This document shows, piece after piece, positions 3,319-57,778 of a stretch of 64,000 bases of DNA. Under the pieces are notes generated by a model that was not told the DNA's origin, searched no databases, and was given only the letters and a program-made list of their open reading frames with translations. The stretch lies in assembly GCF_022846255.1 (NCBI RefSeq), contig NZ_AP025682.1; one strand, given 5' to 3'. This DNA comes from Escherichia coli. Its GTDB lineage: Bacteria > Pseudomonadota > Gammaproteobacteria > Enterobacterales > Enterobacteriaceae. Numbering within the stretch: position 1 is the stretch's first letter; every line of letters starts with the position of its first letter. Position numbers and translations under genes: made by a program.

Positions 3319-4480
<1,162 letters not shown>

Positions 4481-22625: not shown

Positions 22626-22720
22626 GTTCATGCCGGATGCGGCGTGAACGCCTTATCCGGCCTACAAAAAATCTTGCCAATTCAATATATTGCAGGACCA
22701 CGTAGGCCTGATAAGCGTAG
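22626..22720. repeat. BIME: two inverted REP units
   Basis: gccggatgcggcgtgaacgccttatccggcctaca ... gtaggcctgataagcgtagcgcatcaggca, classic REP palindromes in opposite orientation downstream of fepA. Confidence 0.7.
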
Positions 22721-23427: not shown

Positions 23428-23428
23428 T

Positions 23429-25187: not shown

Positions 25188-25367
25188 TTAATACCTCTGA
25201 ATTTATTTTCAACATGGAATATTTATTCCACCGGGGACTAAAAAAACCAGAAATCCCAGGGCGTTGCGCGGCAAGACTTACGCTGCTGCATCATACTCAG
25301 GAACATTCTGCCTCCTTACACCGTCAGTTACGTGTCCGGGTAATCATCAGTTGACCTGATATCATCT

Positions 25368-25381
25368 TGAATATATATTCA
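25368..25381. promoter_or_regulatory. Palindrome TGAATATATATTCA in the transketolase / regulator divergent promoter region; candidate operator
   Basis: Direct reading; the same 12-bp core GAATATATATTC recurs at 26729..26740 upstream of the kinase-transporter operon. Confidence 0.45.
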
Positions 25382-25549
25382 ATAATGATTCTTTATTCAA
25401 TTATGCCGCCTGTTTTTTATTTTTGTCCATCGCTGATTTTAAGGATTGGTTAAAGTTAGAACTCCATCACACTTAACTGTCTTCTTTTTTCGCGTATGAT
25501 AAAAGCCTCTAAGATAAGGGCGGTACGTTAATGATTTACGGGGAAATAT

Positions 25550-26500
25550 ATGGCTAAGCAGGATGAACAGCGGCTACTGGTGAAGATCGCCACTCTTTAC
25601 TATCTTGAGGGGCGAAAACAGTCTGACATCGCCCAACTTCTCTCGCTTTCTCAGTCATTTATCTCCAGAGCGCTAACCCGTTGCCAGAAAGAAGGCGTGG
25701 TTAAAATCAGCGTTGTCCAGCCGTCAAATATCTTTCTCAATCTGGAAAAAGGCATTGAAGAGCGTTACGGCATTAAACAAGCGATTGTTGTCGATACCGA
25801 AGATGATGCCACTGACCATACCATTAAACGTGCTATCGGCTCTGCCGCCGCGCACTATCTGGAAACGCGTTTAAGACCAAAAGATTTCATTGGCGTCTCT
25901 TCCTGGAGTTCTACGATTCGCGCGATGGTCGATGAAGTTCACGCCCAAAACTTAAAAGCCAGCGGCGTTATTCAGCTGCTGGGCGGCGTGGGGCCAAACG
26001 GCAATGTGCAGGCAACTATTTTGACACAGACCCTGGCCCAGCATCTGAATTGCGAAGCCTGGTTGCTTCCTTCTCAAAGCATTGAAGGTTCGGTAGAAGA
26101 GAAAAAACGCCTGGTGGCAAGCCAGGATGTGGCTGACGTTATCGCCAGATTTGACGACGTCGATATCGCCATTGTCGGCATCGGTATCCTTGAACCCTCG
26201 CAGTTGCTAAAAACCTCGGGCAACTATTATCACGAGGATATGTTACAGGTACTGGCGGATCGCGGTGCTGTGGGCGATATCTGCCTGCACTACTACGATA
26301 AACATGGTCAGCCCGTGTTGCAGGACGATGAAGATCCAGTGATTGGTATGGCACTGGATAAAATCAAAAAATGCCCGAATGTGGTGGCACTGGCGGGCGG
26401 CAAAGACAAAGTTGCCGCCATCAAAGGCGCCATGCAGGGTGGTTATATTGATGTTTTGATCACTGATTTCCCCACCGCCAGAATGCTGATTGCGGATTAA
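25550..26500 (+). CDS. SorC/DeoR-family sugar-binding transcriptional regulator
   Basis: 316 aa; N-terminal HTH (QSDIAQLLSLSQSFISRALTRCQKEGVV) and C-terminal sugar-phosphate-binding domain typical of SorC/DeoR/EryD regulators. Confidence 0.85.
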   Translation: MAKQDEQRLLVKIATLYYLEGRKQSDIAQLLSLSQSFISRALTRCQKEGVVKISVVQPSNIFLNLEKGIEERYGIKQAIVVDTEDDATDHTIKRAIGSAAAHYLETRLRPKDFIGVSSWSSTIRAMVDEVHAQNLKASGVIQLLGGVGPNGNVQATILTQTLAQHLNCEAWLLPSQSIEGSVEEKKRLVASQDVADVIARFDDVDIAIVGIGILEPSQLLKTSGNYYHEDMLQVLADRGAVGDICLHYYDKHGQPVLQDDEDPVIGMALDKIKKCPNVVALAGGKDKVAAIKGAMQGGYIDVLITDFPTARMLIAD

Positions 26501-26523
26501 TCCTCTCCTCCCTTTCTTCTGCC

Positions 26524-26552
26524 CGCCTTTGCGAAAAAATCTTCTCGCAAAG
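26524..26552 (+). terminator. Hairpin downstream of the regulator gene; candidate intrinsic terminator
   Basis: cctttgcgaaaaaatcttctcgcaaagg forms a 9-bp stem; the 3' flank is not strongly T-rich, so strength is uncertain. Confidence 0.35.
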
Positions 26553-26646
26553 GCGCTTGCTTAAAAATCCTTTAATATCAATAAACTGAAATGATTCAAC
26601 AATCCTGTTTCTCGAGGCTTTCTCACCCTGTCACCACGCTTCTAAG

Positions 26647-26662
26647 TGTGATAGCCAGCACA
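26647..26662. promoter_or_regulatory. CRP-like site TGTGA-N6-GCACA upstream of the kinase-transporter operon
   Basis: tgtgatagccagcaca; 4/5 + 5/5 match to the CRP half-sites TGTGA/TCACA; about 190 bp upstream of the kinase start. Confidence 0.35.
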
Positions 26663-26728
26663 TTTGATGATTTTTTCTCTAGCTCAGGAAGAATAATCTG
26701 GCTAAGGTATAAATAAATAATCAGCATC

Positions 26729-26740
26729 GAATATATATTC
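26729..26740. promoter_or_regulatory. Second copy of the GAATATATATTC palindrome; candidate operator of the kinase-transporter-dehydrogenase operon
   Basis: Direct reading; identical 12-bp core to 25369..25380. Confidence 0.45.
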
Positions 26741-26850
26741 ACGCCTTAACACAAAATGTCACAGCAGGGCCTGATGAAGTAATAACGTGACCATGAGGAA
26801 CGCCTCATCTCCTTCCACGCCAGGATGCAATGTGACTCAGGAGACTACCT

Positions 26851-28371
26851 ATGTTTGCAGGAAATAAAGAGTTCGTTGTTGCGTTGGATGAGGGTACCAC
26901 CAATGTAAAAGCCATCGCACTTGATGGTTTCGGTAACGTGGTGGCGAAGTTTTCTCAACCACTGGCTATTCAGACGCCACGTGAAGGCTGGGTTGAGCAA
27001 TCCGGGGAAGCGTTAATCTCTGCCTCGCTTGATGTTATTGCCCAGGCCATCAACCACGTGGGGGCAGAAAATGTAGCGGCTCTGGCTATCAGTAATCAGC
27101 GTGAAACGGCTATCGGCTGGTATCGTCAGAGTGGAAAACCACTCAATGCGGCGATTACCTGGCAATGCACGCGCAGTGCAGAGTTTTGTGAAACACTTCG
27201 TCGCGAGGGCAAAGAGCAGCAAATTAAAACGACTACAGGCCTGCCTATCGCCCCGCTATTTTCCGCGTCCAAGATGCGTTGGCTACTGGAATCTACACCT
27301 GAGGGTGTGCAACTTGCCGACCAGGGTGAAATTTGTCTCGGCACCATTGATGCCTGGTTGCTATGGAACTTGACTGCTGGCGATTCATTTTGCTGCGACT
27401 ACTCTAACGCCGCGCGAACTCAATTACTTAACCTGAAAACAGGCGAGTGGGATGAGGAAATGCTGGCGTTGTTTCACATCCCACGCGCTGCATTGCCAGA
27501 AATTAAACCTTCCAGTGGCCTGTTCGGTTATACCCGAGGACTTAAAACAATTCCGGATGGTATTCCCGTCATGGCGATGGTGGGCGATTCTCACGCCGCT
27601 CTTTTTGGTCATGCGTTGGGAGAAGCGGGATGTGTGAAGGCGACCTATGGGACCGGTTCTTCCGTCATGGCCCCCGTCAACTCTGCTCAGTGTGATATCG
27701 CCACACTTGCCACAACCATTGCCTGGCATGATGGCGAAAATATTATTTACGGTCTGGAAGGAAATATCCCCCACACCGGCGATGCCGTGGCATGGATGGC
27801 TGACAGCACCGGTTTAAGTGAACTGACAGACGCGGAGCTGGCCCACGAACTGAATACCCTGCCAGCCTCAGTGGATTCGACTATGGGTGTTTATTTTGTT
27901 CCTGCTCTCACTGGCCTGGGCGCGCCATGGTGGGATGACAGCGCTCGCGGCGTGGTGTGTGGCTTAAGCCGTGGCGTAAAGCGCGCGCATTTGATTCGTG
28001 CCGCAATGGAATCAATCACTTATCAAATTGCAGATGTAGTGGAGGCAATGCAACAGCATGATGATTTTCACTTATCGGCGTTAATGGTGGATGGCGGCCC
28101 GACCAAAAATGACTGGTTGATGCAATATCAGGCGGATCTGCTGGGTTGCCCGGTGATGCGCAGTGATGTGCCAGAGCTTTCAGCCATTGGTGCGGGCCTG
28201 CTCGCCCGCAAAGCGCTTATCCCCGGTACCGTTGCAGATTTAAAAGCGTTATTAACTGAACACAGTGAATTTAAACCGGACATGGCGCGTCATCAGCGAC
28301 TGCAAAAGAGATGGCAGGAGTGGCGTCATGCGGTAAACAGAACATTATGGAAACCGGCATCGTCAATTTGA
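26851..28371 (+). CDS. FGGY-family carbohydrate kinase (xylulokinase / glycerol kinase-like)
   Basis: 506 aa, MFAGNKEFVVALDEGTTNVKAIALDGFGNVVAKF...; FGGY N- and C-terminal domain signatures. Confidence 0.85.
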   Translation: MFAGNKEFVVALDEGTTNVKAIALDGFGNVVAKFSQPLAIQTPREGWVEQSGEALISASLDVIAQAINHVGAENVAALAISNQRETAIGWYRQSGKPLNAAITWQCTRSAEFCETLRREGKEQQIKTTTGLPIAPLFSASKMRWLLESTPEGVQLADQGEICLGTIDAWLLWNLTAGDSFCCDYSNAARTQLLNLKTGEWDEEMLALFHIPRAALPEIKPSSGLFGYTRGLKTIPDGIPVMAMVGDSHAALFGHALGEAGCVKATYGTGSSVMAPVNSAQCDIATLATTIAWHDGENIIYGLEGNIPHTGDAVAWMADSTGLSELTDAELAHELNTLPASVDSTMGVYFVPALTGLGAPWWDDSARGVVCGLSRGVKRAHLIRAAMESITYQIADVVEAMQQHDDFHLSALMVDGGPTKNDWLMQYQADLLGCPVMRSDVPELSAIGAGLLARKALIPGTVADLKALLTEHSEFKPDMARHQRLQKRWQEWRHAVNRTLWKPASSI

Positions 28372-28474
28372 CGAACAAGACTAACCAACGGAAGGAGAAT
28401 ACCGGCCCATAAATAATTCAGGCTTTACGTTGTTTCACCGTACCCGACAATAACAACACAGAGAGAACATTGTC

Positions 28475-29410
28475 ATGAAATTACGTTTAACACTGTTAAC
28501 CGCTGCGACCCTGACTGCTCTTTCTTTTTCTGCTCATGCGGTAGAAAAAGGAACCATTATGATTATGGTCAATTCACTGGATAATCCTTATTACGCCTCG
28601 GAAGCGAAAGGTGCCAGTGAAAAAGCCCAGCAACTGGGATATAAAACGACCATTCTTTCTCATGGTGAAGATGTCAAAAAACAGAATGAACTGATCGATA
28701 CTGCAATTGGTAAAAAAGTTCAGGGCATTATTTTAGATAATGCCGACTCCACTGCCAGTGTTGCAGCCATTGAAAAAGCAAAAAAAGCAGGTATTCCCGT
28801 TATATTAATTAATCGCGAAATACCTGTGGATGATGTTGCACTGGTGCAAATTACCCATAATAACTTCCAGGCTGGCTCGGAAGTTGCCAACGTATTTGTC
28901 GAGAAAATGGGAGAGAAAGGAAAATATGCCGAACTCACCTGTAATCTTGCTGATAATAATTGCGTAACTCGCTCGAAATCTTTCCATCAGGTCATTGACC
29001 AGTTCCCTGAAATGGTCAGCGTGGCGAAGCAAGATGCCAAAGGCACGTTAATTGATGGCAAACGGATAATGGACAGTATTCTGCAAGCCCATCCCGATGT
29101 AAAAGGGGTGATTTGTGGTAATGGTCCGGTTGCACTGGGAGCTATCGCAGCACTGAAAGCAGCCAATCGCAATGACGTTATTGTTGTCGGCATTGATGGC
29201 AGTAACGATGAGCGCGATGCCGTGAAAGCCGAATCATTGCAGGCTACCGTGATGTTACAAGCGCAAGCCATTGCCGCGCAGGGGGTTACCGATTTGGATA
29301 ATTACCTGCAAAAAGGAGTTAAACCAGCCAAACAGCGGGTGATGTTCCGCGGCATTCTGATAACCAAAGATAACGCAGATAAAGTCCAGGATTTCAATAT
29401 CAAATCCTGA
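28475..29410 (+). CDS. Periplasmic sugar-binding protein of an ABC transporter (RbsB-like)
   Basis: 311 aa with signal peptide MKLRLTLLTAATLTALSFSAHA; periplasmic binding protein type I fold. Confidence 0.85.
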   Translation: MKLRLTLLTAATLTALSFSAHAVEKGTIMIMVNSLDNPYYASEAKGASEKAQQLGYKTTILSHGEDVKKQNELIDTAIGKKVQGIILDNADSTASVAAIEKAKKAGIPVILINREIPVDDVALVQITHNNFQAGSEVANVFVEKMGEKGKYAELTCNLADNNCVTRSKSFHQVIDQFPEMVSVAKQDAKGTLIDGKRIMDSILQAHPDVKGVICGNGPVALGAIAALKAANRNDVIVVGIDGSNDERDAVKAESLQATVMLQAQAIAAQGVTDLDNYLQKGVKPAKQRVMFRGILITKDNADKVQDFNIKS

Positions 29411-29456
29411 TCCCAGGTCGTTGCGCCCTCACAATGAGGGCGCAGAGGAGAATATT

Positions 29457-30077
29457 ATGGATAAAAAAGTCTGGCTGGCGCTGGCAATTCTGAGCCTGGG
29501 TGGATGTCGCATCGTCTCGCAGCAGGAACTTGCCGATCTCAAATCCCCGCCTAATCCTCATATGGCAAATATCGATCAGACCTGGCAGAAAAATATCGTG
29601 CCGCAGGTGGTAGAAAATGCACGTCCGGTTGCGGAGTTAATGGCGGCGCTACAGGCAGAAAAAGATGTCGATGCTGCCTGTAAAACGCTGGGCTATCGTT
29701 CTCAGGAAGAAAACCCGTGTATTTTCTACGTTAAGGTCGAAGGTGGCATCACCAATATTGATGCGAAATCCCGTAGCGGAAAAATGACCATCACAGATAT
29801 CAGCGGCACAAATATTGTCGTGCAGACGGGGCCAACTCTTCGCGGCACGCTTCTGCGAGATGCATATAAAGGTGCAAGCTATGAGCATTTTAACGATCAG
29901 GTTTTATTTGGTGAATATGGTCGTGCTATCAATGAGCAAGCCATCAATATGATTCAGTCGGCAAAGCTTAAAACCGGGGAAACGGTTCAGGTTTATGGCG
30001 TATTTTCTGCATGGGATATTCCGCAAACTATCCCGGATATAACGCCTGCGAAAATAGCCAGGGCGGGAGGCGAGTAA
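29457..30077 (+). CDS. DUF2291-like predicted lipoprotein embedded in the ABC transporter operon
   Basis: MDKKVWLALAILSLGGC... with a lipobox LSLGGC; start chosen at the internal Met with the signal peptide rather than the track start at 29421. Confidence 0.65.
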   Translation: MDKKVWLALAILSLGGCRIVSQQELADLKSPPNPHMANIDQTWQKNIVPQVVENARPVAELMAALQAEKDVDAACKTLGYRSQEENPCIFYVKVEGGITNIDAKSRSGKMTITDISGTNIVVQTGPTLRGTLLRDAYKGASYEHFNDQVLFGEYGRAINEQAINMIQSAKLKTGETVQVYGVFSAWDIPQTIPDITPAKIARAGGE

Positions 30078-30078
30078 T

Positions 30079-31623
30079 ATGTTGCCGCAAGAAATTGACA
30101 CCCCCCAGACTGATGAATCACCTGTAATCATAGAAACGCATGACTTATCGCGTATTTATCCGGGTGTGGTGGCGTTAGATAACGTGAATTACCGTGTCTA
30201 TCGCAATAGAGTGAATGTGCTTATTGGTGAAAACGGTGCGGGTAAATCCACAATGATGAAAATGCTGGCGGGGGTTGAAACACCTTCCTCAGGCAAGATC
30301 ATTCTTGATGGTAAAGAAGTTACCCTAAATTCTACCCATCAGGCCGAAAAACATGGAATTAGTATCATTTTTCAGGAACTGAATTTATTCCCGAATATGA
30401 ATGTCATAGATAACATTTTCATGGCGAATGAATTTTTTCAGAAAGGGAAGATTAACGAAAAATATCAGTATGAATTAGCCAAATCTTTATTAGAGAGACT
30501 GGAGTTGGACGTTGATCCCTATACCCAACTGGGAGAACTTGGTATTGGTCATCAGCAACTGGTGGAGATTGCCCGTGCCCTTTCTAAAGATACCCGGGTA
30601 CTGATTATGGATGAACCGACCTCGGCCCTCAGCCAGTCGGAAGTCAAAGTACTTTTCAATGTGATCGCACAACTGAAGCGCCGTGGTGTCACCATCATTT
30701 ATATCTCCCACCGTCTGGAAGAGTTGATGGAGATTGGCGATTTCATCACCATTTTCCGTGATGGTCGCTTTATTAGTGAACGCGCAGTGAGCGATGCCAG
30801 TATTCCGTGGATCATCGCACAAATGGTCGGTGATAAGAAAAAACATTTTGATTATCAACCAGCTACACAAGGTGACACTGTACTGGCGGTACTGGGGTTA
30901 ACGGCGCTGCATCCCAGCGGTGGTTACAAACTCAATGATGTGACATTCAACCTGCGTAAAGGCGAAGTTATCGGCATTTACGGCTTGCTGGGCGCAGGAC
31001 GTACTGAGCTATTTAAAGGACTGGTGGGCCTGATGCCCTGTCAGAGTGGGAAGATCCTGCTTAATGGTGAAACCATCGACAAATGCCATTTCCAGGCGCG
31101 GCTCAAAAAGGGGCTGGCGTTGGTGCCAGAAGATCGCCAGGGCGAAGGCGTCGTTCAGATGATGTCGATTCAGTCCAATATGACGCTATCCGATTTCAGC
31201 CTGCAAGGTTTTCGCCGTGCCTGGAAATGGCTGAATCCGCAAAAAGAGAGCGCCAGTGTGAAAGAGATGATCCAGCAACTGGCGATCAAAGTCAGTGATG
31301 CCGAACTCCCTATTACCTCACTCAGCGGCGGTAACCAGCAAAAAGTGGTACTTGGCAAAGCGTTGATGACCCAGCCACAGGTGGTGTTTCTTGATGAACC
31401 CACACGCGGCATTGATGTTGGCGCAAAAACCGACGTCTATCAGCTGGTGGGAAAAATGGCACAACAGGGGCTGGCAGTCATGTTCTCTTCTTCAGAACTC
31501 GATGAAGTCATGGCACTGGCAGATCGCATTCTGGTGATGGCTGATGGCCGTATTACCGCTGATCTACCCCGGGGCGAAGTCACCCGAGAGAAACTGATCG
31601 CGGCTTCAACACCTCAAGATTAA
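30079..31623 (+). CDS. Sugar ABC transporter ATPase with duplicated ATP-binding domains (RbsA-like)
   Basis: 514 aa; Walker A GENGAGKST in the first half, a second nucleotide-binding domain, signature LSGGNQQK. Confidence 0.9.
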   Translation: MLPQEIDTPQTDESPVIIETHDLSRIYPGVVALDNVNYRVYRNRVNVLIGENGAGKSTMMKMLAGVETPSSGKIILDGKEVTLNSTHQAEKHGISIIFQELNLFPNMNVIDNIFMANEFFQKGKINEKYQYELAKSLLERLELDVDPYTQLGELGIGHQQLVEIARALSKDTRVLIMDEPTSALSQSEVKVLFNVIAQLKRRGVTIIYISHRLEELMEIGDFITIFRDGRFISERAVSDASIPWIIAQMVGDKKKHFDYQPATQGDTVLAVLGLTALHPSGGYKLNDVTFNLRKGEVIGIYGLLGAGRTELFKGLVGLMPCQSGKILLNGETIDKCHFQARLKKGLALVPEDRQGEGVVQMMSIQSNMTLSDFSLQGFRRAWKWLNPQKESASVKEMIQQLAIKVSDAELPITSLSGGNQQKVVLGKALMTQPQVVFLDEPTRGIDVGAKTDVYQLVGKMAQQGLAVMFSSSELDEVMALADRILVMADGRITADLPRGEVTREKLIAASTPQD

Positions 31624-31640
31624 TCAGGCTGGAATTTCTT

Positions 31641-32708
31641 ATGAATCAGAAATATATGATCTATATGTACCTGTTGAAAGCCAGAACGTTTATCGCTCTG
31701 CTGTTAGTGATCGCCTTCTTTAGCGTGATGGTGCCTAACTTCCTGACGGCCTCTAACCTGCTGATTATGACTCAACACGTTGCGATTACCGGGCTGCTGG
31801 CAATCGGAATGACGCTGGTGATCCTGACAGGCGGCATCGATCTTTCCGTCGGCGCGGTAGCGGGGATCTGCGGAATGGTTGCCGGGGCTCTGCTAACAAA
31901 CGGCCTGCCATTGTGGAGCGGCGATATTATTTTCTTCAACGTACCGGAAGTGATCCTCTGCGTGGCGGTATTTGGCATTTTAGTGGGACTGGTGAATGGT
32001 GCGGTAATCACCCGCTTTGGTGTCGCGCCCTTTATCTGCACCCTCGGTATGATGTACGTCGCCCGTGGCTCTGCCCTGCTGTTTAATGATGGCAGCACTT
32101 ACCCCAATCTCAACGGCATGGAGGCACTGGGCAACACGGGTTTCGCCACCCTTGGTTCTGGCACGTTTTTAGGCGTTTATTTGCCAATCTGGCTGATGAT
32201 TGGCTTTTTGATTTTAGGCTACTGGATCACGACTAAAACGCCGCTCGGTCGTTATATCTATGCCATTGGTGGCAATGAATCTGCCGCGCGACTGGCAGGC
32301 GTACCCATCGTAAAAGTCAAAGTGTTCGTCTATGCGTTCTCCGGATTATGCGCCGCATTTGTCGGTTTGATTGTTGCCTCGCAGCTGCAAACCGCTCACC
32401 CAATGACCGGCAATATGTTCGAAATGGATGCTATCGGTGCCACGGTTCTTGGTGGAACTGCGCTGGCAGGTGGTCGGGGACGTGTCTCTGGCTCGATTAT
32501 CGGTGCCTTTGTCATTGTCTTCCTCGCCGATGGCATGGTGATGATGGGGGTCAGTGATTTCTGGCAAATGGTCATTAAAGGCCTCGTTATCGTCACCGCC
32601 GTGGTAGTCGATCAGTTCCAGCAAAAATTGCAAAACAAAGTCATTTTGATGCGTCGCCATGAAGAAAAGATGGCCGCCGCACCTGCCGTAAAACCGCTTT
32701 CCAGTTAA
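31641..32708 (+). CDS. Sugar ABC transporter permease (RbsC-like)
   Basis: 355 aa polytopic membrane protein of the monosaccharide ABC permease family. Confidence 0.85.
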   Translation: MNQKYMIYMYLLKARTFIALLLVIAFFSVMVPNFLTASNLLIMTQHVAITGLLAIGMTLVILTGGIDLSVGAVAGICGMVAGALLTNGLPLWSGDIIFFNVPEVILCVAVFGILVGLVNGAVITRFGVAPFICTLGMMYVARGSALLFNDGSTYPNLNGMEALGNTGFATLGSGTFLGVYLPIWLMIGFLILGYWITTKTPLGRYIYAIGGNESAARLAGVPIVKVKVFVYAFSGLCAAFVGLIVASQLQTAHPMTGNMFEMDAIGATVLGGTALAGGRGRVSGSIIGAFVIVFLADGMVMMGVSDFWQMVIKGLVIVTAVVVDQFQQKLQNKVILMRRHEEKMAAAPAVKPLSS

Positions 32709-32761
32709 TTAACATCATTCCGCCGGGCATTAAATTGCCCGGCTTATACAGGGGAAAAAAT

Positions 32762-33559
32762 ATGCAACGTAATTTTCAGGGTAAGACTGTAGTTATTACC
32801 GGGGCATGCCGGGGAATTGGGGCCGGGATCGCTGAACGCTTCGCCCGCGATGGCGCAAATCTGGTGATGGTTTCTAACGCTGCACGCGTGCATGAAACTG
32901 CTGAGCAACTGCGCCAATGTTATCAGGCTGACATTTTGTCATTAGAAGTCGATGTGACAGATGAAGCGCAAGTACAGGCACTCTATGAACAAGCGGCTGC
33001 ACGTTTTGGCAGCATCGATGTTTCCATTCAGAATGCAGGCATTATCACCATCGATTATTTTGATCGAATGCCGGCTGCTGATTTCGAAAAAGTGCTGGCG
33101 GTGAACACTACGGCAGTCTGGCTCTGCTGCCGGGAAGCAGCCAAATATATGGTGAAACAAAATCACGGCTGCCTGATCAACACCTCTTCTGGCCAGGGAC
33201 GTCAGGGGTTTATCTATACCCCACACTATGCAGCCAGCAAAATGGGTGTGATCGGCATTACGCAAAGCCTGGCGCACGAGTTAGCGCAGTGGAATATCAC
33301 TGTTAACGCCTTCTGCCCTGGTATTATCGAAAGCGAAATGTGGGACTACAACGACCGCGTATGGGGAGAAATTCTCAGTACCGATGACAAGCGTTATGGC
33401 AAAGGCGAGCTTATGGCGGAATGGGTGGAAGGTATTCCGATGAAGCGTGCCGGTAAACCTGAAGATGTTGCCGGACTGGTTGCCTTCCTCGCCTCTGACG
33501 ATGCGCGTTATCTCACCGGTCAAACCATCAACATCGACGGCGGCCTGATTATGTCGTAA
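32762..33559 (+). CDS. Short-chain dehydrogenase/reductase (polyol / sugar dehydrogenase-like)
   Basis: MQRNFQGKTVVITGACRGIGAGIAERFA...; TGxxxGIG Rossmann motif and catalytic YxxxK; ATG at 32762 preferred over the upstream TTG-initiated track start. Confidence 0.8.
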   Translation: MQRNFQGKTVVITGACRGIGAGIAERFARDGANLVMVSNAARVHETAEQLRQCYQADILSLEVDVTDEAQVQALYEQAAARFGSIDVSIQNAGIITIDYFDRMPAADFEKVLAVNTTAVWLCCREAAKYMVKQNHGCLINTSSGQGRQGFIYTPHYAASKMGVIGITQSLAHELAQWNITVNAFCPGIIESEMWDYNDRVWGEILSTDDKRYGKGELMAEWVEGIPMKRAGKPEDVAGLVAFLASDDARYLTGQTINIDGGLIMS

Positions 33560-33591
33560 TGCCCCTGCGGGCTACTAAGAGAGATATCAAA

Positions 33592-34377
33592 ATGATCGCA
33601 AAAGATTTTGCTCAACAATTGTTTGATCTCCACGATCGCGTCGCCTTTGTCACTGGCGCAGGTAGCGGTATCGGACAAATGATCGCTCTGGCTTTAGCCA
33701 GCGCAGGCGCACGAGTGGTGTGTTTTGATCTACGGGAAGATGGCGGACTCAAAGAGACGGTTAATCATATCGAAGCACTTGGCGGACAAGCCTTGTATTA
33801 CACGGGCGATGTTCGGGAATTGAGAGATCTTCGCGCAGCAGTCGCTCTGGCAAAAACACATTTTGGTCGTCTGGATATTGCCGTAAACGCCGCTGGAATC
33901 GCTAACGCAAACCCGGCGCTGGAGATGGAAAGCGAGCAATGGCAACGCGTTATCGATATCAACCTGACTGGTGTGTGGAATTCCTGTAAGGCGGAAGCCG
34001 AGTTAATGGTAGAGAACGGAGGCGGCTCGATTATAAATATTGCGTCAATGTCCGGGATTATCGTCAATCGCGGTCTGGAACAGGCTCACTACAACAGCTC
34101 CAAAGCAGGCGTGATTCATTTATCTAAAAGTCTTGCGATGGAATGGGTGAGTAAAGGGATCCGTGTGAACTCAATCAGTCCAGGATATACCGCAACACCA
34201 ATGAATACCCGACCTGAAATGGTGCATCAGACTCGGGAGTTTGAAATCCAGACGCCGATTCAGCGGATGGCGAAAGTGGAAGAGATGGCGGGTCCAGCGC
34301 TGTTCCTTGCCAGCGATGCGGCGTCGTTCTGCACTGGTGTTGATCTGGTGGTCGATGGTGGTTTTGTCTGCTGGTAA
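33592..34377 (+). CDS. Second short-chain dehydrogenase/reductase
   Basis: MIAKDFAQQLFDLHDRVAFVTGAGSGIGQMIALALA...; SDR motifs; start at 33592 preferred for its upstream gagag Shine-Dalgarno, with 33559 as alternative. Confidence 0.8.
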   Translation: MIAKDFAQQLFDLHDRVAFVTGAGSGIGQMIALALASAGARVVCFDLREDGGLKETVNHIEALGGQALYYTGDVRELRDLRAAVALAKTHFGRLDIAVNAAGIANANPALEMESEQWQRVIDINLTGVWNSCKAEAELMVENGGGSIINIASMSGIIVNRGLEQAHYNSSKAGVIHLSKSLAMEWVSKGIRVNSISPGYTATPMNTRPEMVHQTREFEIQTPIQRMAKVEEMAGPALFLASDAASFCTGVDLVVDGGFVCW

Positions 34378-34486
34378 AAATGGTTTCGCCCGCAGCCATC
34401 ACTGACCGCGGGCGAAAGTGTAAAGCAGGTGCCTTACCACCCTGACCTGACAACCGGATATGCGGGGATTGCTCCCCGCACAACGG

Positions 34487-34639
34487 CTACTTCTTCGGTT
34501 CGTAAGCGAGAACAACCTTAAACTCAATATTACGTTCCTTTACGGTAAACTCACACAGCGAGTCTCCGACCAGAAGCGTAAATCCCAGCACCGTTAAACA
34601 CAGCACTATGACTGCCACAAGGGCATATTTCGTCAGCAT
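34487..34639 (-). CDS. hokE: Hok-family small membrane toxin, copy 1 (variant with V at the position where copy 2 has A)
   Basis: [50 protein letters not shown], 50 aa; Hok family signature; overlapped by mok-like ORF 34551..34739. Confidence 0.8.
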
Positions 34640-34739
34640 GTTTATATTGCCTCCATGCGAAGAAGGGACTACCATCCAAATTGTTCAGGTTTGGGTAGGT
34701 AGCCCCAAGGTTGATAGAAATATCGTCCTGGGGCTTCAT
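34551..34739 (-). CDS. mokE: mok-like overlapping reading frame, copy 1
   Basis: 62-aa ORF overlapping the hok start in a different frame, as in hok/mok/sok loci. Confidence 0.5.
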
Positions 34740-34990
34740 CTTTCCAGACCTCAGAGTAAACCTGAAACCGGAAAGCTTCAGGCACCCGCAGTTATCTTAC
34801 CCTTCCTTAGCAAAATAGCTGTTTATTTATACAGTGAGTCCTGTTTAGGACTTTTCACCTGTATTATCGCCCATGCCAGTAAAACGAAATCGCCCGCAGC
34901 CATCTCTGACTGCGGGCGAAAGTGTAAAGCAGGTGCCTTACCATCCTGACCTGACAACCGGATATGCGGGGATTACTCCCCGCACAACGG

Positions 34991-35143
34991 CTACTTCTTC
35001 GGTTCGTAAGCGAGAACAGCCTTAAACTCAATATTACGTTCCTTTACGGTAAACTCACACAGCGAGTCTCCGACCAGAAGCGTAAATCCCAGCACCGTTA
35101 AACACAGCACTATGACTGCCACAAGGGCATATTTCGTCAGCAT
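34991..35143 (-). CDS. hokE: Hok-family small membrane toxin, copy 2
   Basis: [50 protein letters not shown], 50 aa; the copy adjacent to ybdK. Confidence 0.85.
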
Positions 35144-35243
35144 GTTTATATTGCCTCCATGCGAAGAAGGGACTACCATCCAAATTGTTCAGGTTTGGGT
35201 AGGTAGCCCCAGGGTTGATAGAAATATCGTCCTGGGGCTTCAT
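35055..35243 (-). CDS. mokE: mok-like overlapping reading frame, copy 2
   Basis: 62-aa ORF overlapping the hok start in a different frame. Confidence 0.5.
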
Positions 35244-35579
35244 CTTTCCAGACCTCAGAGTAAACCTGAAACCGGAAAGCTTCAGGCACCCGCAGTTATC
35301 TTACCCTTCCTTAGCAAAATAGCTGTTTATTTATACAGTGAGTCCTGTTTCGGACTTCTCATTTAATCAACTGAAGCTGAACCCGTTTTTTTCTGCATGC
35401 CTCAATCGTCAAAATTCTTCGCCGCCAGCCAGCTCTGCCATAACTTGTCACATTGCAAAAGTAGCCAAATTGCTTCAGTCACAATCAGTTCTCCATCACC
35501 AAAAAAAGAAACATTCCAGAACTTCCGCATCTCACCCAGCCGCTCCCACTTCTATACTGAATAGAAAACGCCAACATAA

Positions 35580-49751: not shown

Positions 49752-51989
49752 GTGGACTGGCTTCTTGATGTTTTTGCTACCTGGCTCTACGGCTTAAAAG
49801 TAATCGCGATAACGTTAGCGGTCATTATGTTCATCAGCGGGCTGGACGATTTTTTTATTGATGTCGTCTACTGGGTACGCCGCATTAAACGCAAGTTGAG
49901 TGTTTATCGCCGCTACCCGCGAATGAGTTACCGCGAACTGTATAAACCAGATGAAAAACCGTTAGCGATTATGGTTCCGGCGTGGAATGAAACGGGCGTC
50001 ATCGGCAATATGGCCGAGCTGGCGGCGACCACGCTCGACTACGAAAACTATCATATCTTTGTTGGCACCTACCCCAACGACCCCGATACTCAGCGTGATG
50101 TTGACGAAGTGTGCGCTCGCTTCCCGAACGTGCATAAGGTAGTCTGCGCGCGTCCTGGCCCCACCAGCAAAGCCGACTGTCTGAACAACGTGCTGGACGC
50201 CATCACCCAATTTGAACGTAGCGCCAATTTCGCTTTTGCTGGTTTTATTCTGCATGACGCCGAAGATGTGATTTCACCGATGGAATTGCGTCTGTTCAAC
50301 TATCTGGTCGAGCGTAAAGATCTGATTCAGATCCCAGTGTATCCGTTCGAACGCGAATGGACGCACTTCACCAGCATGACCTACATTGATGAGTTTTCAG
50401 AACTGCATGGCAAAGATGTTCCGGTGCGTGAAGCCCTCGCCGGACAGGTGCCCAGCGCAGGCGTCGGCACCTGTTTCAGCCGCCGCGCCGTGACCGCACT
50501 GTTAGCTGACGGTGACGGTATTGCTTTCGACGTGCAGAGTCTGACTGAAGATTACGACATTGGCTTCCGCCTGAAAGAGAAAGGTATGACGGAAATTTTT
50601 GTCCGTTTTCCGGTGGTGGACGAAGCCAAAGAACGCGAGCAGCGTAAATTTTTACAGCATGCGCGGACGTCAAACATGATCTGCGTGCGCGAATATTTCC
50701 CCGATACCTTTTCGACTGCGGTTCGGCAAAAATCTCGCTGGATCATCGGCATTGTTTTCCAGGGCTTTAAAACCCACAAATGGACCTCCAGCCTGACGCT
50801 GAACTACTTTCTCTGGCGCGACCGCAAAGGGGCAATCAGTAACTTTGTCAGCTTCCTCGCGATGCTGGTGATGATCCAGCTTTTGCTGTTGCTGGCGTAT
50901 GAAAGTTTGTGGCCCGATGCCTGGCATTTCCTTTCTATTTTCAGCGGCAGCGCATGGTTAATGACTCTGCTGTGGCTAAACTTTGGCTTGATGATTAACC
51001 GCATCGTGCAGCGGGTGATTTTCGTTACTGGCTACTACGGCCTGACGCAGGGGCTGCTATCTGTCCTGCGTCTTTTCTGGGGCAACCTGATTAACTTCAT
51101 GGCCAACTGGCGCGCGTTAAAACAGGTACTTCAACACGGCGATCCACGTCGCGTCGCGTGGGATAAAACAACGCATGACTTCCCCAGCGTGACTGGCGAT
51201 ACCCGCTCGTTGCGTCCGTTAGGTCAAATCCTGCTGGAAAATCAGGTCATCACTGAAGAACAACTCGATACAGCACTGCGTAATCGCGTCGAAGGTCTAC
51301 GCCTGGGCGGTTCAATGCTGATGCAGGGGCTGATTAGCGCCGAGCAACTGGCACAGGCGCTGGCAGAGCAAAACGGCGTGGCGTGGGAATCCATCGATGC
51401 CTGGCAGATCCCTTCCTCGCTGATTGCCGAAATGCCGGCCTCCGTGGCGTTGCATTATGCGGTACTGCCGCTGCGTCTGGACAATGATGAGTTAATTGTC
51501 GGCAGTGAAGATGGTATTGACCCGGTTTCGCTGGCGGCCCTGACGCGTAAAGTCGGACGCAAAGTGCGTTACGTCATTGTTCTGCGGGGACAAATTGTCA
51601 CCGGATTACGCCACTGGTATGCACGCCGACGCGGTCACGATCCGCGGGCAATGTTGTACAATGCAGTTCAGCATCAGTGGCTCACGGAACAGCAGGCCGG
51701 TGAAATCTGGCGGCAATATGTGCCGCATCAGTTCCTGTTCGCAGAAATACTGACCACGCTCGGTCATATTAATCGTTCAGCAATTAACGTGTTGTTATTG
51801 CGCCATGAACGCAGTTCTCTGCCGCTCGGCAAGTTTTTGGTCACCGAAGGCGTTATCAGCCAGGAAACGTTGGATCGCGTCCTGACAATTCAACGCGAAT
51901 TACAAGTTTCGATGCAATCACTATTACTCAAAGCAGGTTTAAACACTGAACAGGTTGCACAACTGGAGTCCGAAAATGAAGGAGAATAA
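49752..51989 (+). CDS. nfrB: Inner-membrane GT2 glycosyltransferase with C-terminal c-di-GMP-binding domain (phage N4 adsorption protein B)
   Basis: 745 aa beginning V/MDWLLDVFATWLYGLKVIAITLAVIMF (likely GTG start); GT2 domain plus C-terminal MshEN-like region. Confidence 0.9.
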   Translation: MDWLLDVFATWLYGLKVIAITLAVIMFISGLDDFFIDVVYWVRRIKRKLSVYRRYPRMSYRELYKPDEKPLAIMVPAWNETGVIGNMAELAATTLDYENYHIFVGTYPNDPDTQRDVDEVCARFPNVHKVVCARPGPTSKADCLNNVLDAITQFERSANFAFAGFILHDAEDVISPMELRLFNYLVERKDLIQIPVYPFEREWTHFTSMTYIDEFSELHGKDVPVREALAGQVPSAGVGTCFSRRAVTALLADGDGIAFDVQSLTEDYDIGFRLKEKGMTEIFVRFPVVDEAKEREQRKFLQHARTSNMICVREYFPDTFSTAVRQKSRWIIGIVFQGFKTHKWTSSLTLNYFLWRDRKGAISNFVSFLAMLVMIQLLLLLAYESLWPDAWHFLSIFSGSAWLMTLLWLNFGLMINRIVQRVIFVTGYYGLTQGLLSVLRLFWGNLINFMANWRALKQVLQHGDPRRVAWDKTTHDFPSVTGDTRSLRPLGQILLENQVITEEQLDTALRNRVEGLRLGGSMLMQGLISAEQLAQALAEQNGVAWESIDAWQIPSSLIAEMPASVALHYAVLPLRLDNDELIVGSEDGIDPVSLAALTRKVGRKVRYVIVLRGQIVTGLRHWYARRRGHDPRAMLYNAVQHQWLTEQQAGEIWRQYVPHQFLFAEILTTLGHINRSAINVLLLRHERSSLPLGKFLVTEGVISQETLDRVLTIQRELQVSMQSLLLKAGLNTEQVAQLESENEGE

Positions 51990-54948
51990 CCTTAATCGCG
52001 TCATCGGATGGTCTGGTTTACTGCTGACATCTTTATTGAGTACCAGCGCACTCGCAGACAATATCGGCACCAGCGCAGAAGAGCTGGGGCTGAGCGATTA
52101 TCGCCATTTTGTTATTTATCCCCGTCTCGATAAGGCGCTGAAGGCACAGAAAAATAACGACGAAGCAACCGCCATCCGCGAATTTGAATATATACACCAG
52201 CAGGTGCCGGATAATATTCCGCTGACTTTATACCTTGCGGAAGCCTATCGCCATTTTGGTCATGATGACCGGGCGCGGCTGTTGCTTGAGGATCAACTGA
52301 AACGTCACCCTGGAGATGATCGGCTTGAGCGCAGTCTGGCGGCTATTCCTGTTGAAGTGAAAAGCGTTACGACTGTTGAAGAACTGCTTGCCCAGCAAAA
52401 AGCGTGCGATGCTGCGCCGACCCTGCGTTGTCGCAGTGAAGTCGGGCAGAATGCCCTGCGGCTGGCACAATTACCTGTCGCCAGAGCGCAACTGAACGAT
52501 GCGACGTTTGCTGCATCGCCGGAAGGAAAAACGCTGCGAACCGATCTGCTGCAACGCGCAATCTACCTGAAACAATGGTCCCAGGCAGATACGCTATACA
52601 ATGAAGCACGCCAGCAGAACACATTAAGCGCGGCAGAACGCCGTCAGTGGTTTGACGTGCTTCTTGCCGGGCAGCTGGACGATCGGATCCTGGCGCTGCA
52701 ATCACAGGGGATCTTCACCGATCCTCAGTCATATATTACTTACGCGACCGCGCTGGCTTATCGTGGCGAAAAAGCACGCCTCCAGCATTATCTCATTGAA
52801 AATAAGCCGCTGTTTACCACGGACGCACAAGAGAAAAGTTGGCTCTATCTGTTATCTAAATACAGCGCCAACCCCGTTCAGGCGTTGGCGAATTATACGG
52901 TACAGTTTGCCGACAACCGCCAGTATGTTGTTGGCGCGACGCTACCGGTGCTGTTAAAAGAAGGTCAGTACGGCGCAGCGCAAAAACTGCTCGCCACCCT
53001 CCCCGCCAATGAAATGCTTGAGGAGCGTTATACCGTTAGCGTAGCGACCCATAACAAGGCTGAAGCTCTGCGTCTGGCACGATTGCTGTATCAGCAAGAA
53101 CCGGCAAATCTTACCCGCCTGGATCAACTGACCTGGCAACTGATGCAGAACGAACAGTCACGCGAAGCTGCCGATTTATTGCTGCAACGCTATCCTTTCC
53201 AGGGCGATGCGCGTGTCAGCCAGACTTTAATGGCGCGACTGGCGTCTCTGCTGGAAAGTCATCCTTACCTGGCAACGCCGGCGAAGGTGGCGATTTTATC
53301 GAAACCCTTACCGCTGGCGGAGCAACGTCAGTGGCAAAGTCAGTTGCCGGGTATTGCAGATAATTGCCCGGCAATAGTTCGCTTGCTGGGCGATATGTCG
53401 CCTTCCTACGATGCCGCCGCCTGGAACCGTCTGGCAAAGTGTTATCGGGACACGCTACCCGGTGTGGCGTTGTATGCATGGCTTCAGGCCGAACAACGAC
53501 AACCGAACGCCTGGCAACATCGTGCGGTAGCCTATCAGGCGTATCAGGTTGAGGACTACGCCACCGCACTGGCGGCATGGCAGAAAATCAGTCTTCACGA
53601 CATGAGCAATGAGGATCTGCTTGCTGCTGCCAATACCGCCCAGGCGGCAGGAAATGGTGCGGCTCGCGATCGCTGGCTTCAGCAGGCAGAACAACGTGGG
53701 CTGGGAAACAATGCCCTCTACTGGTGGCTGCATGCGCAACGTTACATTCATGGTCAGCCGGAACTCGCACTGAACGATCTCACGCGCTCAATCAATATTG
53801 CGCCTTCTGCCAACGCTTACGTTGCGCGGGCAACAATTTATCGCCAACGTCATAATATCCCGGCGGCGGTGAGTGATTTGCGCGCCGCGCTGGAACTGGA
53901 ACCGAATAATAGCAACACCCAGGCAGCGCTTGGTTACGCCTTGTGGGATAGCGGTGATATCGCACAGTCGCGGGAAATGCTCGAACAGGCGCATAAAGGG
54001 CTACCGGACGATCCGGCACTTATCCGACAACTGGCCTACGTGAACCAGCGTCTGGATGACATGCCTGCGACGCAGCACTACGCCCGGCTGGTGATTGATG
54101 ACATTGATAATCAGGCGCTGATAACCCCACTGACCCCAGAGCAAAATCAGCAACGCTTCAATTTCCGCCGTCTGCATGAGGAGGTCGGTCGCCGCTGGAC
54201 GTTCAGTTTCGATTCTTCTATCGGCTTGCGTTCCGGCGCAATGAGTACCGCTAACAATAATGTCGGCGGCGCAGCGCCAGGGAAAAGCTATCGTAGCTAC
54301 GGGCAACTGGAAGCCGAGTATCGCATCGGACGCAATATGCTGCTGGAAGGCGACCTGCTCTCGGTTTACAGCCGTGTATTTGCCGATACCGGAGAAAACG
54401 GGGTGATGATGCCGGTGAAAAATCCGATGTCCGGCACCGGTCTGCGCTGGAAGCCGCTGCGCGATCAGATCTTTTTCCTCACCGTCGAACAGCAGTTGCC
54501 GCTGAACGGCCAAAATGGTGCATCCGATACCATGCTGCGCGCCAGCGCCTCATTCTTTAATGGCGGCAAATACAGCGACGAATGGCACCCGAACGGTTCA
54601 GGCTGGTTTGCCCAAAACCTGTACCTCGATGCAGCGCAATATATCCGCCAGGATATTCAGGCGTGGACGGCAGATTATCGCGTCAGCTGGCATCAGAAGG
54701 TAGCTAACGGACAGACTATTGAGCCTTACGCTCACGTTCAGGACAACGGCTATCGTGATAAAGGCACTCAGGGCGCGCAGCTTGGCGGTGTCGGGGTCCG
54801 CTGGAATATCTGGACCGGCGAGACGCACTACGACGCCTGGCCGCACAAAGTCAGTCTCGGCGTCGAGTATCAACATACCTTTAAGGCGATTAATCAACGT
54901 AACGGAGAGCGCAACAATGCGTTTCTCACCATTGGAGTGCACTGGTAA
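51976..54948 (+). CDS. nfrA: Outer-membrane TPR-containing protein (phage N4 adsorption protein A)
   Basis: MKENNLNRVIGWSGLLLTSLLSTSALADNIG... with signal peptide; start trimmed to give 990 aa; overlaps the nfrB 3' end by 14 bp. Confidence 0.9.
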   Translation: MKENNLNRVIGWSGLLLTSLLSTSALADNIGTSAEELGLSDYRHFVIYPRLDKALKAQKNNDEATAIREFEYIHQQVPDNIPLTLYLAEAYRHFGHDDRARLLLEDQLKRHPGDDRLERSLAAIPVEVKSVTTVEELLAQQKACDAAPTLRCRSEVGQNALRLAQLPVARAQLNDATFAASPEGKTLRTDLLQRAIYLKQWSQADTLYNEARQQNTLSAAERRQWFDVLLAGQLDDRILALQSQGIFTDPQSYITYATALAYRGEKARLQHYLIENKPLFTTDAQEKSWLYLLSKYSANPVQALANYTVQFADNRQYVVGATLPVLLKEGQYGAAQKLLATLPANEMLEERYTVSVATHNKAEALRLARLLYQQEPANLTRLDQLTWQLMQNEQSREAADLLLQRYPFQGDARVSQTLMARLASLLESHPYLATPAKVAILSKPLPLAEQRQWQSQLPGIADNCPAIVRLLGDMSPSYDAAAWNRLAKCYRDTLPGVALYAWLQAEQRQPNAWQHRAVAYQAYQVEDYATALAAWQKISLHDMSNEDLLAAANTAQAAGNGAARDRWLQQAEQRGLGNNALYWWLHAQRYIHGQPELALNDLTRSINIAPSANAYVARATIYRQRHNIPAAVSDLRAALELEPNNSNTQAALGYALWDSGDIAQSREMLEQAHKGLPDDPALIRQLAYVNQRLDDMPATQHYARLVIDDIDNQALITPLTPEQNQQRFNFRRLHEEVGRRWTFSFDSSIGLRSGAMSTANNNVGGAAPGKSYRSYGQLEAEYRIGRNMLLEGDLLSVYSRVFADTGENGVMMPVKNPMSGTGLRWKPLRDQIFFLTVEQQLPLNGQNGASDTMLRASASFFNGGKYSDEWHPNGSGWFAQNLYLDAAQYIRQDIQAWTADYRVSWHQKVANGQTIEPYAHVQDNGYRDKGTQGAQLGGVGVRWNIWTGETHYDAWPHKVSLGVEYQHTFKAINQRNGERNNAFLTIGVHW

Positions 54949-55839
54949 ATGCGTAAGTTCATTTTCGTATTGCTGACACTGCTTTTGGTCAGCCCTTTTT
55001 CCTTTGCGATGAAAGGTATTATCTGGCAACCACAAAACCGTGATAGTCAGGTTACCGATACCCAGTGGCAGGGGCTGATGAGTCAGTTACGTTTGCAAGG
55101 CTTCGATACCCTGGTTTTGCAATGGACTCGTTACGGCGATGCATTCACCCAGCCAGAACAGCGCGCGTTATTGTTTAAGCGTGCCGCAGCTGCGCAACAG
55201 GCTGGCCTGAAGCTGATTGTCGGGCTGAATGCCGATCCGGAATTTTTTATGCACCAGAAACAGTCGTCTGCAGCGCTGGAAAGCTATCTTAACCGCCTGC
55301 TGGCTGCCGATCTCCAGCAAGCCAGATTATGGAGCGCCGTACCTGGCGTAACGCCGGATGGCTGGTACATCAGCGCGGAAATTGACGACCTGAACTGGCG
55401 CAGCGAAGCCGCCCGTCAGCCTTTGCTAACATGGTTAAACAACGCGCAGCGGTTGATTAGCGATGTTTCAGCAAAACCGGTTTATATCAGTAGTTTTTTC
55501 GCCGGAAACATGTCGCCCGATGGCTATCGCCAACTGCTGGAACACGTTAAAGCAACCGGCGTTAATGTCTGGGTACAGGATGGCAGCGGCGTGGATAAAC
55601 TGACCGCTGAACAGCGTGAACGTTATCTACAGGCCAGCGCCGATTGCCAAAGCTCCGCCCCAGCAAGCGGCATTGTTTATGAACTGTTTGTCGCCGGCAA
55701 AGGCAAAACCTTTACAGCGAAACCGAAACCGGACGCAGAAATTGCCTCGCTGTTAGCGAAACGTTCCTCTTGCGGTAAAGACACGCTCTATTTCTCTCTG
55801 CGCTATTTGCCCGTCGCGCACGGCATTCTCGAGTATTAA
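54949..55839 (+). CDS. ybcH: Periplasmic protein YbcH, third gene of the nfrBA-ybcH operon
   Basis: 296 aa with signal peptide MRKFIFVLLTLLLVSPFSFA; start abuts the nfrA stop. Confidence 0.88.
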   Translation: MRKFIFVLLTLLLVSPFSFAMKGIIWQPQNRDSQVTDTQWQGLMSQLRLQGFDTLVLQWTRYGDAFTQPEQRALLFKRAAAAQQAGLKLIVGLNADPEFFMHQKQSSAALESYLNRLLAADLQQARLWSAVPGVTPDGWYISAEIDDLNWRSEAARQPLLTWLNNAQRLISDVSAKPVYISSFFAGNMSPDGYRQLLEHVKATGVNVWVQDGSGVDKLTAEQRERYLQASADCQSSAPASGIVYELFVAGKGKTFTAKPKPDAEIASLLAKRSSCGKDTLYFSLRYLPVAHGILEY

Positions 55840-56021: not shown

Positions 56022-56783
56022 ATGCAATTGAGCAGCAGTGAACCTTGCGTGGTGATCCTGACCGAAAAAGAGGTAGAGGTAAGCGTCAATAACCATGCTA
56101 CGTTTACCCTTCCGAAAAACTACCTGGCCGCCTTCGCGTGCAACAATAACGTCATTGAACTCTCAACGTTAAATCACGTATTAATCACCCACATCAACCG
56201 TAACATCATCAACGATTATCTGTTGTTTTTAAATAAGAACTTAACCTGTATAAAGCCCTGGTCGCGGCTGGCAACTCCGGTTATCGCTTGTCATAGCCGT
56301 ACACCGGAAGTGTTCCGGCTAGCCGCCAACCACAGCAAGCAGCAACCCAGCAAACCCTGCGAAGCGGAGTTGACGCGCGCATTGCTTTTTACCGTATTGT
56401 CTAACTTTCTTGAGCAATCGCGGTTTATTGCCCTACTGATGTATATCTTACGCAGCAGCGTCCGCGACAGCGTCTGCCGCATTATTCAAAGCGATATTCA
56501 GCATTACTGGAATCTGCGAATTGTCGCCAGTTCGCTATGTTTAAGCCCCAGCCTGCTCAAAAAGAAATTAAAAAACGAAAATACCAGCTATAGCCAGATT
56601 GTCACAGAGTGTCGTATGCGTTACGCCGTACAGATGTTATTGATGGATAACAAAAATATCACTCAGGTGGCGCAATTATGTGGCTATAGCAGCACGTCGT
56701 ACTTTATCTCTGTTTTTAAGGCGTTTTACGGCCTGACACCGTTGAATTATCTCGCCAAACAGCGACAAAAAGTGATGTGGTGA
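56022..56783 (+). CDS. envY: AraC-family transcriptional regulator (envelope porin regulator EnvY)
   Basis: 253 aa; C-terminal AraC HTH (NITQVAQLCGYSSTSYFISVFKAFYGLTPLNYL); position next to ybcH as in K-12. Confidence 0.8.
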   Translation: MQLSSSEPCVVILTEKEVEVSVNNHATFTLPKNYLAAFACNNNVIELSTLNHVLITHINRNIINDYLLFLNKNLTCIKPWSRLATPVIACHSRTPEVFRLAANHSKQQPSKPCEAELTRALLFTVLSNFLEQSRFIALLMYILRSSVRDSVCRIIQSDIQHYWNLRIVASSLCLSPSLLKKKLKNENTSYSQIVTECRMRYAVQMLLMDNKNITQVAQLCGYSSTSYFISVFKAFYGLTPLNYLAKQRQKVMW

Positions 56784-56827
56784 AGAGCAAAGCGGAACGG
56801 ATAAGACGGGATTAAATGAAGAAGAAA

Positions 56828-56904
56828 TGGCGCGCCCTGCAGGATTCGAACCTGCGGCCCACGACTTAGAAGGTCGTTGCTCTATCCAACTGAGCTAAGG
56901 GCGC
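56828..56904 (-). tRNA. argU: tRNA-Arg (UCU), argU
   Basis: The reverse complement reads GCGCCCTTAGCTCAGTTGGATAGAGCAACGACCTTCTAAGTCGTGGGCCGCAGGTTCGAATCCTGCAGGGCGCGCCA: cloverleaf with TCT anticodon and CCA end. Confidence 0.95.
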
Positions 56905-57145
56905 GTTGATACCGCAATGCGGTGTAATCGCGTGAATTATACGGTCAACCCTTGCTGAGTCAATGGCTTTTGATCTGGTTGCTGAACAAGTGAACGACCG
57001 CGTCTGATTTTCTGATTTATTTCGTTATAGCGGCAAACAAACGCACACCGCTGCGCGTCTGAATCAAGAAAACCCGTATTTTCATGTATCAAGTACAATT
57101 TACCGCCCTAACGGAAAATTGTCCGATCCAATGAGACTGGTAACT

Positions 57146-57778
57146 ATGAAACCAACGTCGGTGATCATTATGGATACTCATCCTATCATCAGAATGTCTA
57201 TTGAAGTTCTGTTGCAAAAAAACAGTGAATTGCAGATTGTCCTGAAAACGGATGATTACCGCATAACCATCGATTATCTCCGAACCCGTCCTGTTGATTT
57301 AATCATTATGGATATAGACTTGCCCGGTACAGACGGTTTTACCTTCCTGAAAAGGATCAAACAAATTCAGAGTACAGTGAAAGTATTATTTTTATCATCG
57401 AAATCAGAATGCTTTTATGCTGGCAGAGCGATACAAGCTGGTGCTAACGGTTTTGTCAGTAAATGCAATGATCAGAATGATATTTTTCATGCCGTTCAGA
57501 TGATCCTCTCCGGATACACTTTTTTTCCCAGCGAAACGCTCAACTATATAAAAAGCAATAAATGTAGTATGAATAGTTCAACGGTCACTGTGCTATCTAA
57601 TCGTGAAGTAACCATATTACGTTATCTGGTTAGCGGATTATCTAATAAAGAAATTGCCGATAAGTTATTACTTAGCAATAAAACAGTTAGTGCACATAAA
57701 TCTAATATTTATGGCAAGCTAGGTTTGCATTCAATTGTAGAGCTTATCGACTACGCCAAATTATATGAATTAATATAA
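57146..57778 (+). CDS. fimZ: LuxR/FixJ-family response regulator controlling fimbrial expression
   Basis: MKPTSVIIMDTHPIIRMSIEVLLQKNSELQIVLKTDDYRITIDYLRTRPVDLIIMDIDLPGTDGF...; C-terminal LuxR HTH; start trimmed to give 210 aa. Confidence 0.92.
   Translation: MKPTSVIIMDTHPIIRMSIEVLLQKNSELQIVLKTDDYRITIDYLRTRPVDLIIMDIDLPGTDGFTFLKRIKQIQSTVKVLFLSSKSECFYAGRAIQAGANGFVSKCNDQNDIFHAVQMILSGYTFFPSETLNYIKSNKCSMNSSTVTVLSNREVTILRYLVSGLSNKEIADKLLLSNKTVSAHKSNIYGKLGLHSIVELIDYAKLYELI

Follow-up and report, generated by a model that had tools for sequence, protein, structure and literature searches.

In Escherichia coli K-12 the tRNA gene argU is occupied by DLP12, a defective lambdoid prophage of 21.3 kb that extends from intD to appY and ompT. 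A paper of 2019 reported that the DLP12 attR is similar to 47 bp of argU, compared strains with and without the prophage, and detected DLP12 in 74% of 638 genomes (PMC6379469). ompT has been described as a part of DLP12 (PMC2588501, PMC5723341), and the question of whether strains lacking the prophage never hosted it or have excised it was raised explicitly for Shigella and EIEC (PMC5723341). The RefSeq annotation of K-12 lists fimZ, argU, the 'cryptic prophage DLP12' (564755..586056, intD through appY and ompT), envY, ybcH and nfrA, in that order. The prophage is bracketed by a 47-bp direct repeat, CTTCTAAGTCGTGGGCCGCAGGTTCGAATCCTGCAGGGCGCGCCATT, at positions 3756-3802 and 25058-25104 of the K-12 locus used here for comparison, and the annotated DLP12 feature runs from the first base of the first copy to the base before the second. 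The first copy covers the 3' part of argU and the two bases beyond it, and the second is separated from the stop codon of envY by about 45 bp.

Other strains show other arrangements at the same tRNA gene. In O157:H7 strain Sakai, sequenced in 2001, sfmZ and argU are followed by a 45-bp spacer and a convergent envY, without an integrase gene (NC_002695.2, 657183-658066). Sakai does possess ompT, but as the last gene of the lambda-like prophage Sp8, next to minCDE, and strain TR01 shows the same ompT layout. Strain S103EC (NZ_CP076693.1) carries a degraded element, with the order folD, argU, integrase fragment, fragment of the tail-fibre-assembly gene tfa, methyltransferase, ompT, decayed attR and the chromosomal flank ybcH-nfrA. 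Its attR has 5/47 mismatches and its integrase is truncated; of envY only a short piece of the 3' end remains, and the strain lacks sfm and fimZ, a layout that we take to be that of phylogroup B2.

The 47-bp core is also found in free phages. With the tRNA and its spacer as the query, a search of 50,697 phage records recovered the core from several independent temperate phage genomes. It was identical at 47/47 positions in phages Kati and Turner, and was also present in 2G7b and ev243, in phages of the PhiR series, for which the isolation hosts were E. coli strains, among them ECOR13, E. coli C and K-12, and, at 94% identity, in the Salmonella phages SEN22 and BIS08P22. In Kati and 2G7b the sequence is the core of attP and is 100% identical to the K-12 repeat. 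In Kati (PP925833.1) the core is preceded by a 750-bp regulator gene and then a 954-bp gene, and is followed by a 1164-bp integrase gene; in 2G7b (LR595866.1) it lies between an omptin gene and the integrase gene. Compared with their K-12 counterparts, the Kati proteins are identical at 249/249 (AppY), 316/317 (OmpT) and 384/387 (IntD) residues, and those of 2G7b at 313/317 (OmpT) and 385/387 (Int). At the DNA level, the int-attP-ompT-appY module of Kati is 99.4-99.9% identical to its counterparts in the defective K-12 DLP12, and a functional phage closely related to DLP12 is therefore in circulation today. In the Kati record the att core is labelled 'tRNA-Pro', which looks like a mis-call of a partial tRNA-Arg.

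We analysed a 64-kb stretch of the E. coli chromosome (hereafter the window), which reads in reversed orientation relative to K-12. The gene order near the site is nfrA(+), ybcH(+), envY(+), argU(-) and fimZ(+), followed by the sfm fimbrial operon (-), and the coordinates are given in Table 1. A single tRNA gene was predicted in the window by ARAGORN, namely a tRNA-Arg with anticodon TCT at 56828-56904 on the minus strand, and the Rfam tRNA model RF00005 matched it with 72.1 bits (gathering score 29). This gene is identical to argU of K-12 at 77/77 positions, and equally to argU of S103EC, and synteny identifies it as argU, with sfmD-fimZ-argU colinear with K-12 at 97.9%. The open reading frame at 56022-56783 matches K-12 envY (b0566) with 99.6% DNA identity over 762 bp, and is named envY in the RefSeq annotation of near-identical genomes. 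For fimZ, a start at the ATG at 57146 yields 633 bp, the length of the K-12 gene. A promoter-like site that is close to consensus lies 32 bp upstream of argU, and may act as a promoter.

Table 1. Features at and around the argU site, with positions in the 64-kb window.
Feature	Position	Strand	Basis
nfrA, chromosomal flank	51976..54948	+	98.3% identity to K-12 nfrA over 2973 bp
ybcH, chromosomal flank	54949..55839	+	97.4% identity to K-12 ybcH
envY, AraC-family regulator, 253 aa, convergent with argU	56022..56783	+	ORF list; K-12 identity; RefSeq relatives
Spacer from envY stop to argU 3' end, 44 bp	56784..56827		Direct reading; colinear with the chromosomal flank right of K-12 attR
Single 47-bp attB core CTTCTAAGTCGTGGGCCGCAGGTTCGAATCCTGCAGGGCGCGCCATT	56826..56872	-	Exact match; anticodon loop to tRNA 3' end plus 2 nt
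argU, tRNA-Arg(UCU), 77 nt, intact	56828..56904	-	ARAGORN; Rfam RF00005; K-12 identity
Promoter-like site upstream of argU, TTGACT / 16-nt spacer / TATAAT	56936..56963	-	Consensus scan, 11/12 matches
fimZ (sfmZ), LuxR-type response regulator, divergent from argU	57146..57778	+	ORF; colinear with K-12 at 97.9%

An earlier, sequence-only reading of this DNA had placed argU directly beside envY at a distance of about 45 bp, with no integrase, phage genes, ompT or appY in between. Direct reading bears this out, as the last base of the envY stop codon is 56783 and the spacer that separates it from the 3' end of the tRNA measures 44 bp. Relative to the K-12 attR flank and the Sakai spacer, this 44-bp sequence shows a few substitutions and a 1-nt indel, all of which fall outside the core. 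No intrinsic-terminator-like site was found on scanning the spacer, and its predicted fold was no better than that of shuffled sequence (z 0.88).

The same reading had suggested that an alignment to the K-12 argU-envY interval would locate the attachment repeats, and this is what it did, the repeats being the 47-bp cores of attL and attR. When the K-12 interval from argU through DLP12 to envY was aligned to the window using blastn, only the two flanks matched: positions 1-3802 of the K-12 locus aligned with window positions 60633-56826, and positions 25055-30001 with 56875-51930. The two alignments overlapped solely on the att core, across which the flanks are colinear. The 21-kb interior of DLP12 gave no blastn match anywhere in the 64-kb window. 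Neither intD, tfaD, ybcY, appY and ompT nor their intergenic regions had a DNA match in the window, and IntD and OmpT had no protein match there by tblastn. The core itself was matched once in the window (47/47), and a search that allowed up to three mismatches revealed no duplicated core in the spacer at 56784-56827 and no second copy in the whole 64 kb. Both conditions that the earlier reading had named as refuting it therefore turned out negative. With an interior that has no matches and a core in single copy, a DLP12 cryptic prophage in the window is ruled out. The site is bordered by envY and fimZ, with no adjoining integrase or prophage genes. The absence of ompT and appY applies to the 64-kb window alone, and the rest of the genome may contain ompT or a DLP12-like phage, as in Sakai.

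One match obtained by tblastn with AppY was considered as a candidate prophage remnant and was rejected, as the only region matched was the AraC-type domain of EnvY. The phage-borne AppY and the chromosomal EnvY are AraC-family paralogues with 43.8% identity over 96 residues of the HTH domain, and the part of EnvY that aligns with K-12 AppY is its C-terminus (window positions 56472-56759). In K-12, appY and envY flank attR on opposite sides, about 1.7 kb apart.

We then set the four types of attachment site side by side. The site in the window consists of the 5' half of the tRNA, the core and the envY-side flank. The K-12 attL consists of the tRNA 5' half, the core and the int-side arm, and the K-12 attR of the ompT-side arm, the core and the envY-side flank. 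The attP sites of Kati and 2G7b consist of the ompT-side arm, the core and the int-side arm, and thus differ from the site in the window in being the phage partner, with phage DNA in both arms. The window therefore has on its left the bacterial flank of K-12 attL, on its right the bacterial flank of K-12 attR, and neither of the phage arms. The four sites fit the Campbell model exactly, and the site in the window is attB. The K-12 locus shares with it the tRNA (77/77), the 47-bp core and the flanks fimZ-sfm and envY-ybcH-nfrA, but has two cores with the defective prophage (intD to appY and ompT) between them, where the window has one core and no prophage DNA. The comparison thus upholds the sequence-only reading in its central claim of an unoccupied attachment site. 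The K-12 annotation, in which envY lies just past the attR end of DLP12, is likewise consistent with it.

We consider it nearly certain that the locus is the unoccupied attB of DLP12-family lambdoid phages, situated within the 3' half of a functional argU, and no evidence contradicting this was found. An empty junction might also arise as an artefact of assembly, if a prophage with 47-bp flanking repeats had been dropped or placed on another contig. Sequencing reads are far longer than a 47-bp repeat, however, the flanks are perfectly colinear across the core, and the same junction is uninterrupted in closed genomes including Sakai, with 2501 genomes covering at least 80% of a junction query in one place; we attach almost no probability to such an artefact. 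It is just as improbable that the site stands empty because it was altered beyond use by the phages, that is, as a resistant allele of attB. The core is identical at 47/47 positions to K-12 attL and attR and to the phage attP, the tRNA equals K-12 argU at 77/77 positions, and the few substitutions in the spacer fall outside the core.

The unoccupied attB is readily placed in a scheme of integration. Phages of the DLP12 family carry an attP with the same 47 bp, a tyrosine integrase gene on one side of it and cargo (ompT, sometimes appY) on the other. An integrase-mediated crossover inside the 47 bp would insert the phage. The core copy contributed by the phage would rebuild the 3' half of the tRNA at attL, and a pseudo-tRNA half would remain at attR, about 45 bp from envY. 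The cargo genes, which adjoin attP, would adjoin attR and envY after integration. In the source strain argU abuts envY because no such insertion is present. As the core is 100% identical, the attB in the window is predicted to be competent for integrase-mediated recombination with attP.

It had also been proposed that ompT and appY travel with the prophage and that envY belongs to the core chromosome. The first proposal is correct. Both genes lie inside the core-to-core interval of K-12. In free phages ompT adjoins attP on the side away from the integrase, in Kati with appY next to ompT, and the ompT of Sakai is in Sp8; ompT and appY are phage cargo next to attP. The second needs qualification. 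envY does lie outside the repeats, on the chromosomal side, but it is present in 4170 of 5426 complete E. coli genomes (77%) and is reduced to a remnant in S103EC, and so is not universal.

The frequency of the empty junction was estimated in the same 5426 complete genomes with a 1.3-kb query comprising envY, argU and fimZ, and a genome was counted if at least 80% of the query was covered in one place. The contiguous junction was found in at least 2501 genomes, about half of the collection. The empty state must be at least this frequent, since strains without envY or fimZ cannot reach the required coverage. The comparison with strains lacking DLP12 at argU that the earlier reading had called for thus finds the same junction in Sakai and in at least 2501/5426 genomes. 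The K-12-type arrangement of ompT, attR and envY was present in 1583 genomes, ompT in 3095 and appY in 837. Since 2501 and 3095 together exceed 5426, at least 170 genomes have both an empty junction and ompT, and an empty argU site says nothing about ompT elsewhere in a genome. The arrangement is ordinary and already documented, and its inference here is not new: earlier work had already documented the att core, had traced ompT and appY to phages, and had described strains without DLP12. The locus is a tRNA-embedded phage integration hotspot that is empty in the source strain, with little importance beyond bookkeeping. Its use lies in annotation, in predicting lysogeny by argU-specific temperate phages, and in the expectation that ompT and appY will not be found at this locus.

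Whether the site was never occupied or has lost an occupant is a separate matter. The two histories yield identical sequence, as the core is the same in host and phage, and hence sequence cannot decide between a naive and an excised site. There is no positive evidence for a site that was never occupied; excision by Int/Xis, or RecA-dependent recombination between the 47-bp repeats, would regenerate the same sequence. The best 30 matches to the junction all consisted of one uninterrupted alignment across the site. Over 24 kb, 11 of the best 12 matches were likewise a single uninterrupted alignment; the twelfth, CUVET16-465, gave two separate alignments that together covered about 3.2 kb more than the query, the interruption falling somewhere within the 24 kb. 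Degraded elements such as that of S103EC (5/47 mismatches in attR, truncated integrase) bear on the matter as well, as precise loss of long-resident remnants is unlikely once the integrase is lost and attR is mutated. The uninterrupted best matches and the decay of old remnants provide two weak arguments against long-term residency.

The rival history is a scarless loss. In this scenario a DLP12-like prophage once resided at argU, and Int/Xis excision or RecA recombination of the 47-bp direct repeats restored attB. The product would be identical to the site observed, intact phages that use the argU site circulate today, and Hha-induced excision of DLP12 in K-12 has been published, according to a passage quoted in PMC4632033. 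The choice between a naive and an excised site is also stated to be open for Shigella and EIEC (PMC5723341). Against a loss, the site bears no scar and no phage-derived polymorphism, although none could be expected to betray past residency, because the core equals the host version and the phage version alike at 47/47 positions. Among the genomes of the collection, the closest ones, as judged by the best matches, are almost all empty, which speaks against a recent, strain-specific event, and in degraded remnants that lack the integrase and carry mutations in attR precise loss is blocked. A scarless loss is a real possibility, though we would not favour it. That the lineage never fixed a resident prophage at argU appears somewhat likelier, and we lean towards this history.

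The E. coli lineage of the source strain appears to be poorly sampled. The best match to window positions 40000-64000 (24 kb) among the 5426 complete genomes was 98.7% identical, and identity of the window to K-12 ranged from 95.9% to 98.5% by segment. The chances are about even that this strain preserves an ancestral argU attB that was never occupied. If it does, it would be a natural recipient in which to measure lysogenic conversion by ompT/appY phages such as Kati. It would also provide a reference point for the question raised for Shigella and EIEC, namely whether DLP12 was never present in ompT-negative lineages or was lost from them. For the state of the site in outgroup Escherichia, we scanned one genome per species for an exact pattern of argU and its leader, and retrieved two short contigs only, a Streptomyces triticisoli scaffold (NZ_QFDQ01000134.1) and a contig of a Collinsella MAG. 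The former matched the window over argU and about 190 bp upstream only. Both are likely to be contaminating E. coli DNA or DNA of a vector or tRNA-supplement plasmid, and are uninformative on outgroups.

Some features of the window away from argU were also recorded. An 11.1-kb block at 23300-34400, between the hokE region and entD, is absent from K-12. It encodes a split transketolase, a SorC/DeoR-type regulator, an FGGY sugar kinase, a ribose-type ABC transporter (binding protein, ATPase and permease), two SDR dehydrogenases and one open reading frame without a family match, and looks like an island for sugar or polyol catabolism. Of the 5426 complete genomes, 630 have the block, the best match being 98.9% identical. 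At positions 34385-35400 the hokE/sokE toxin-antitoxin locus occurs twice in tandem, with a repeat period of about 504 bp, and Rfam sok matches were obtained at 34631-34787 and 35135-35291. In K-12 the locus is single and IS186 has inserted next to it, whereas the window has no IS186 there. Finally, the Rfam model of the small RNA ES036 (CssrF) matched at 22668-22709 with 42.2 bits (gathering score 37.6), near the fepA-entD boundary as judged by colinearity with K-12.
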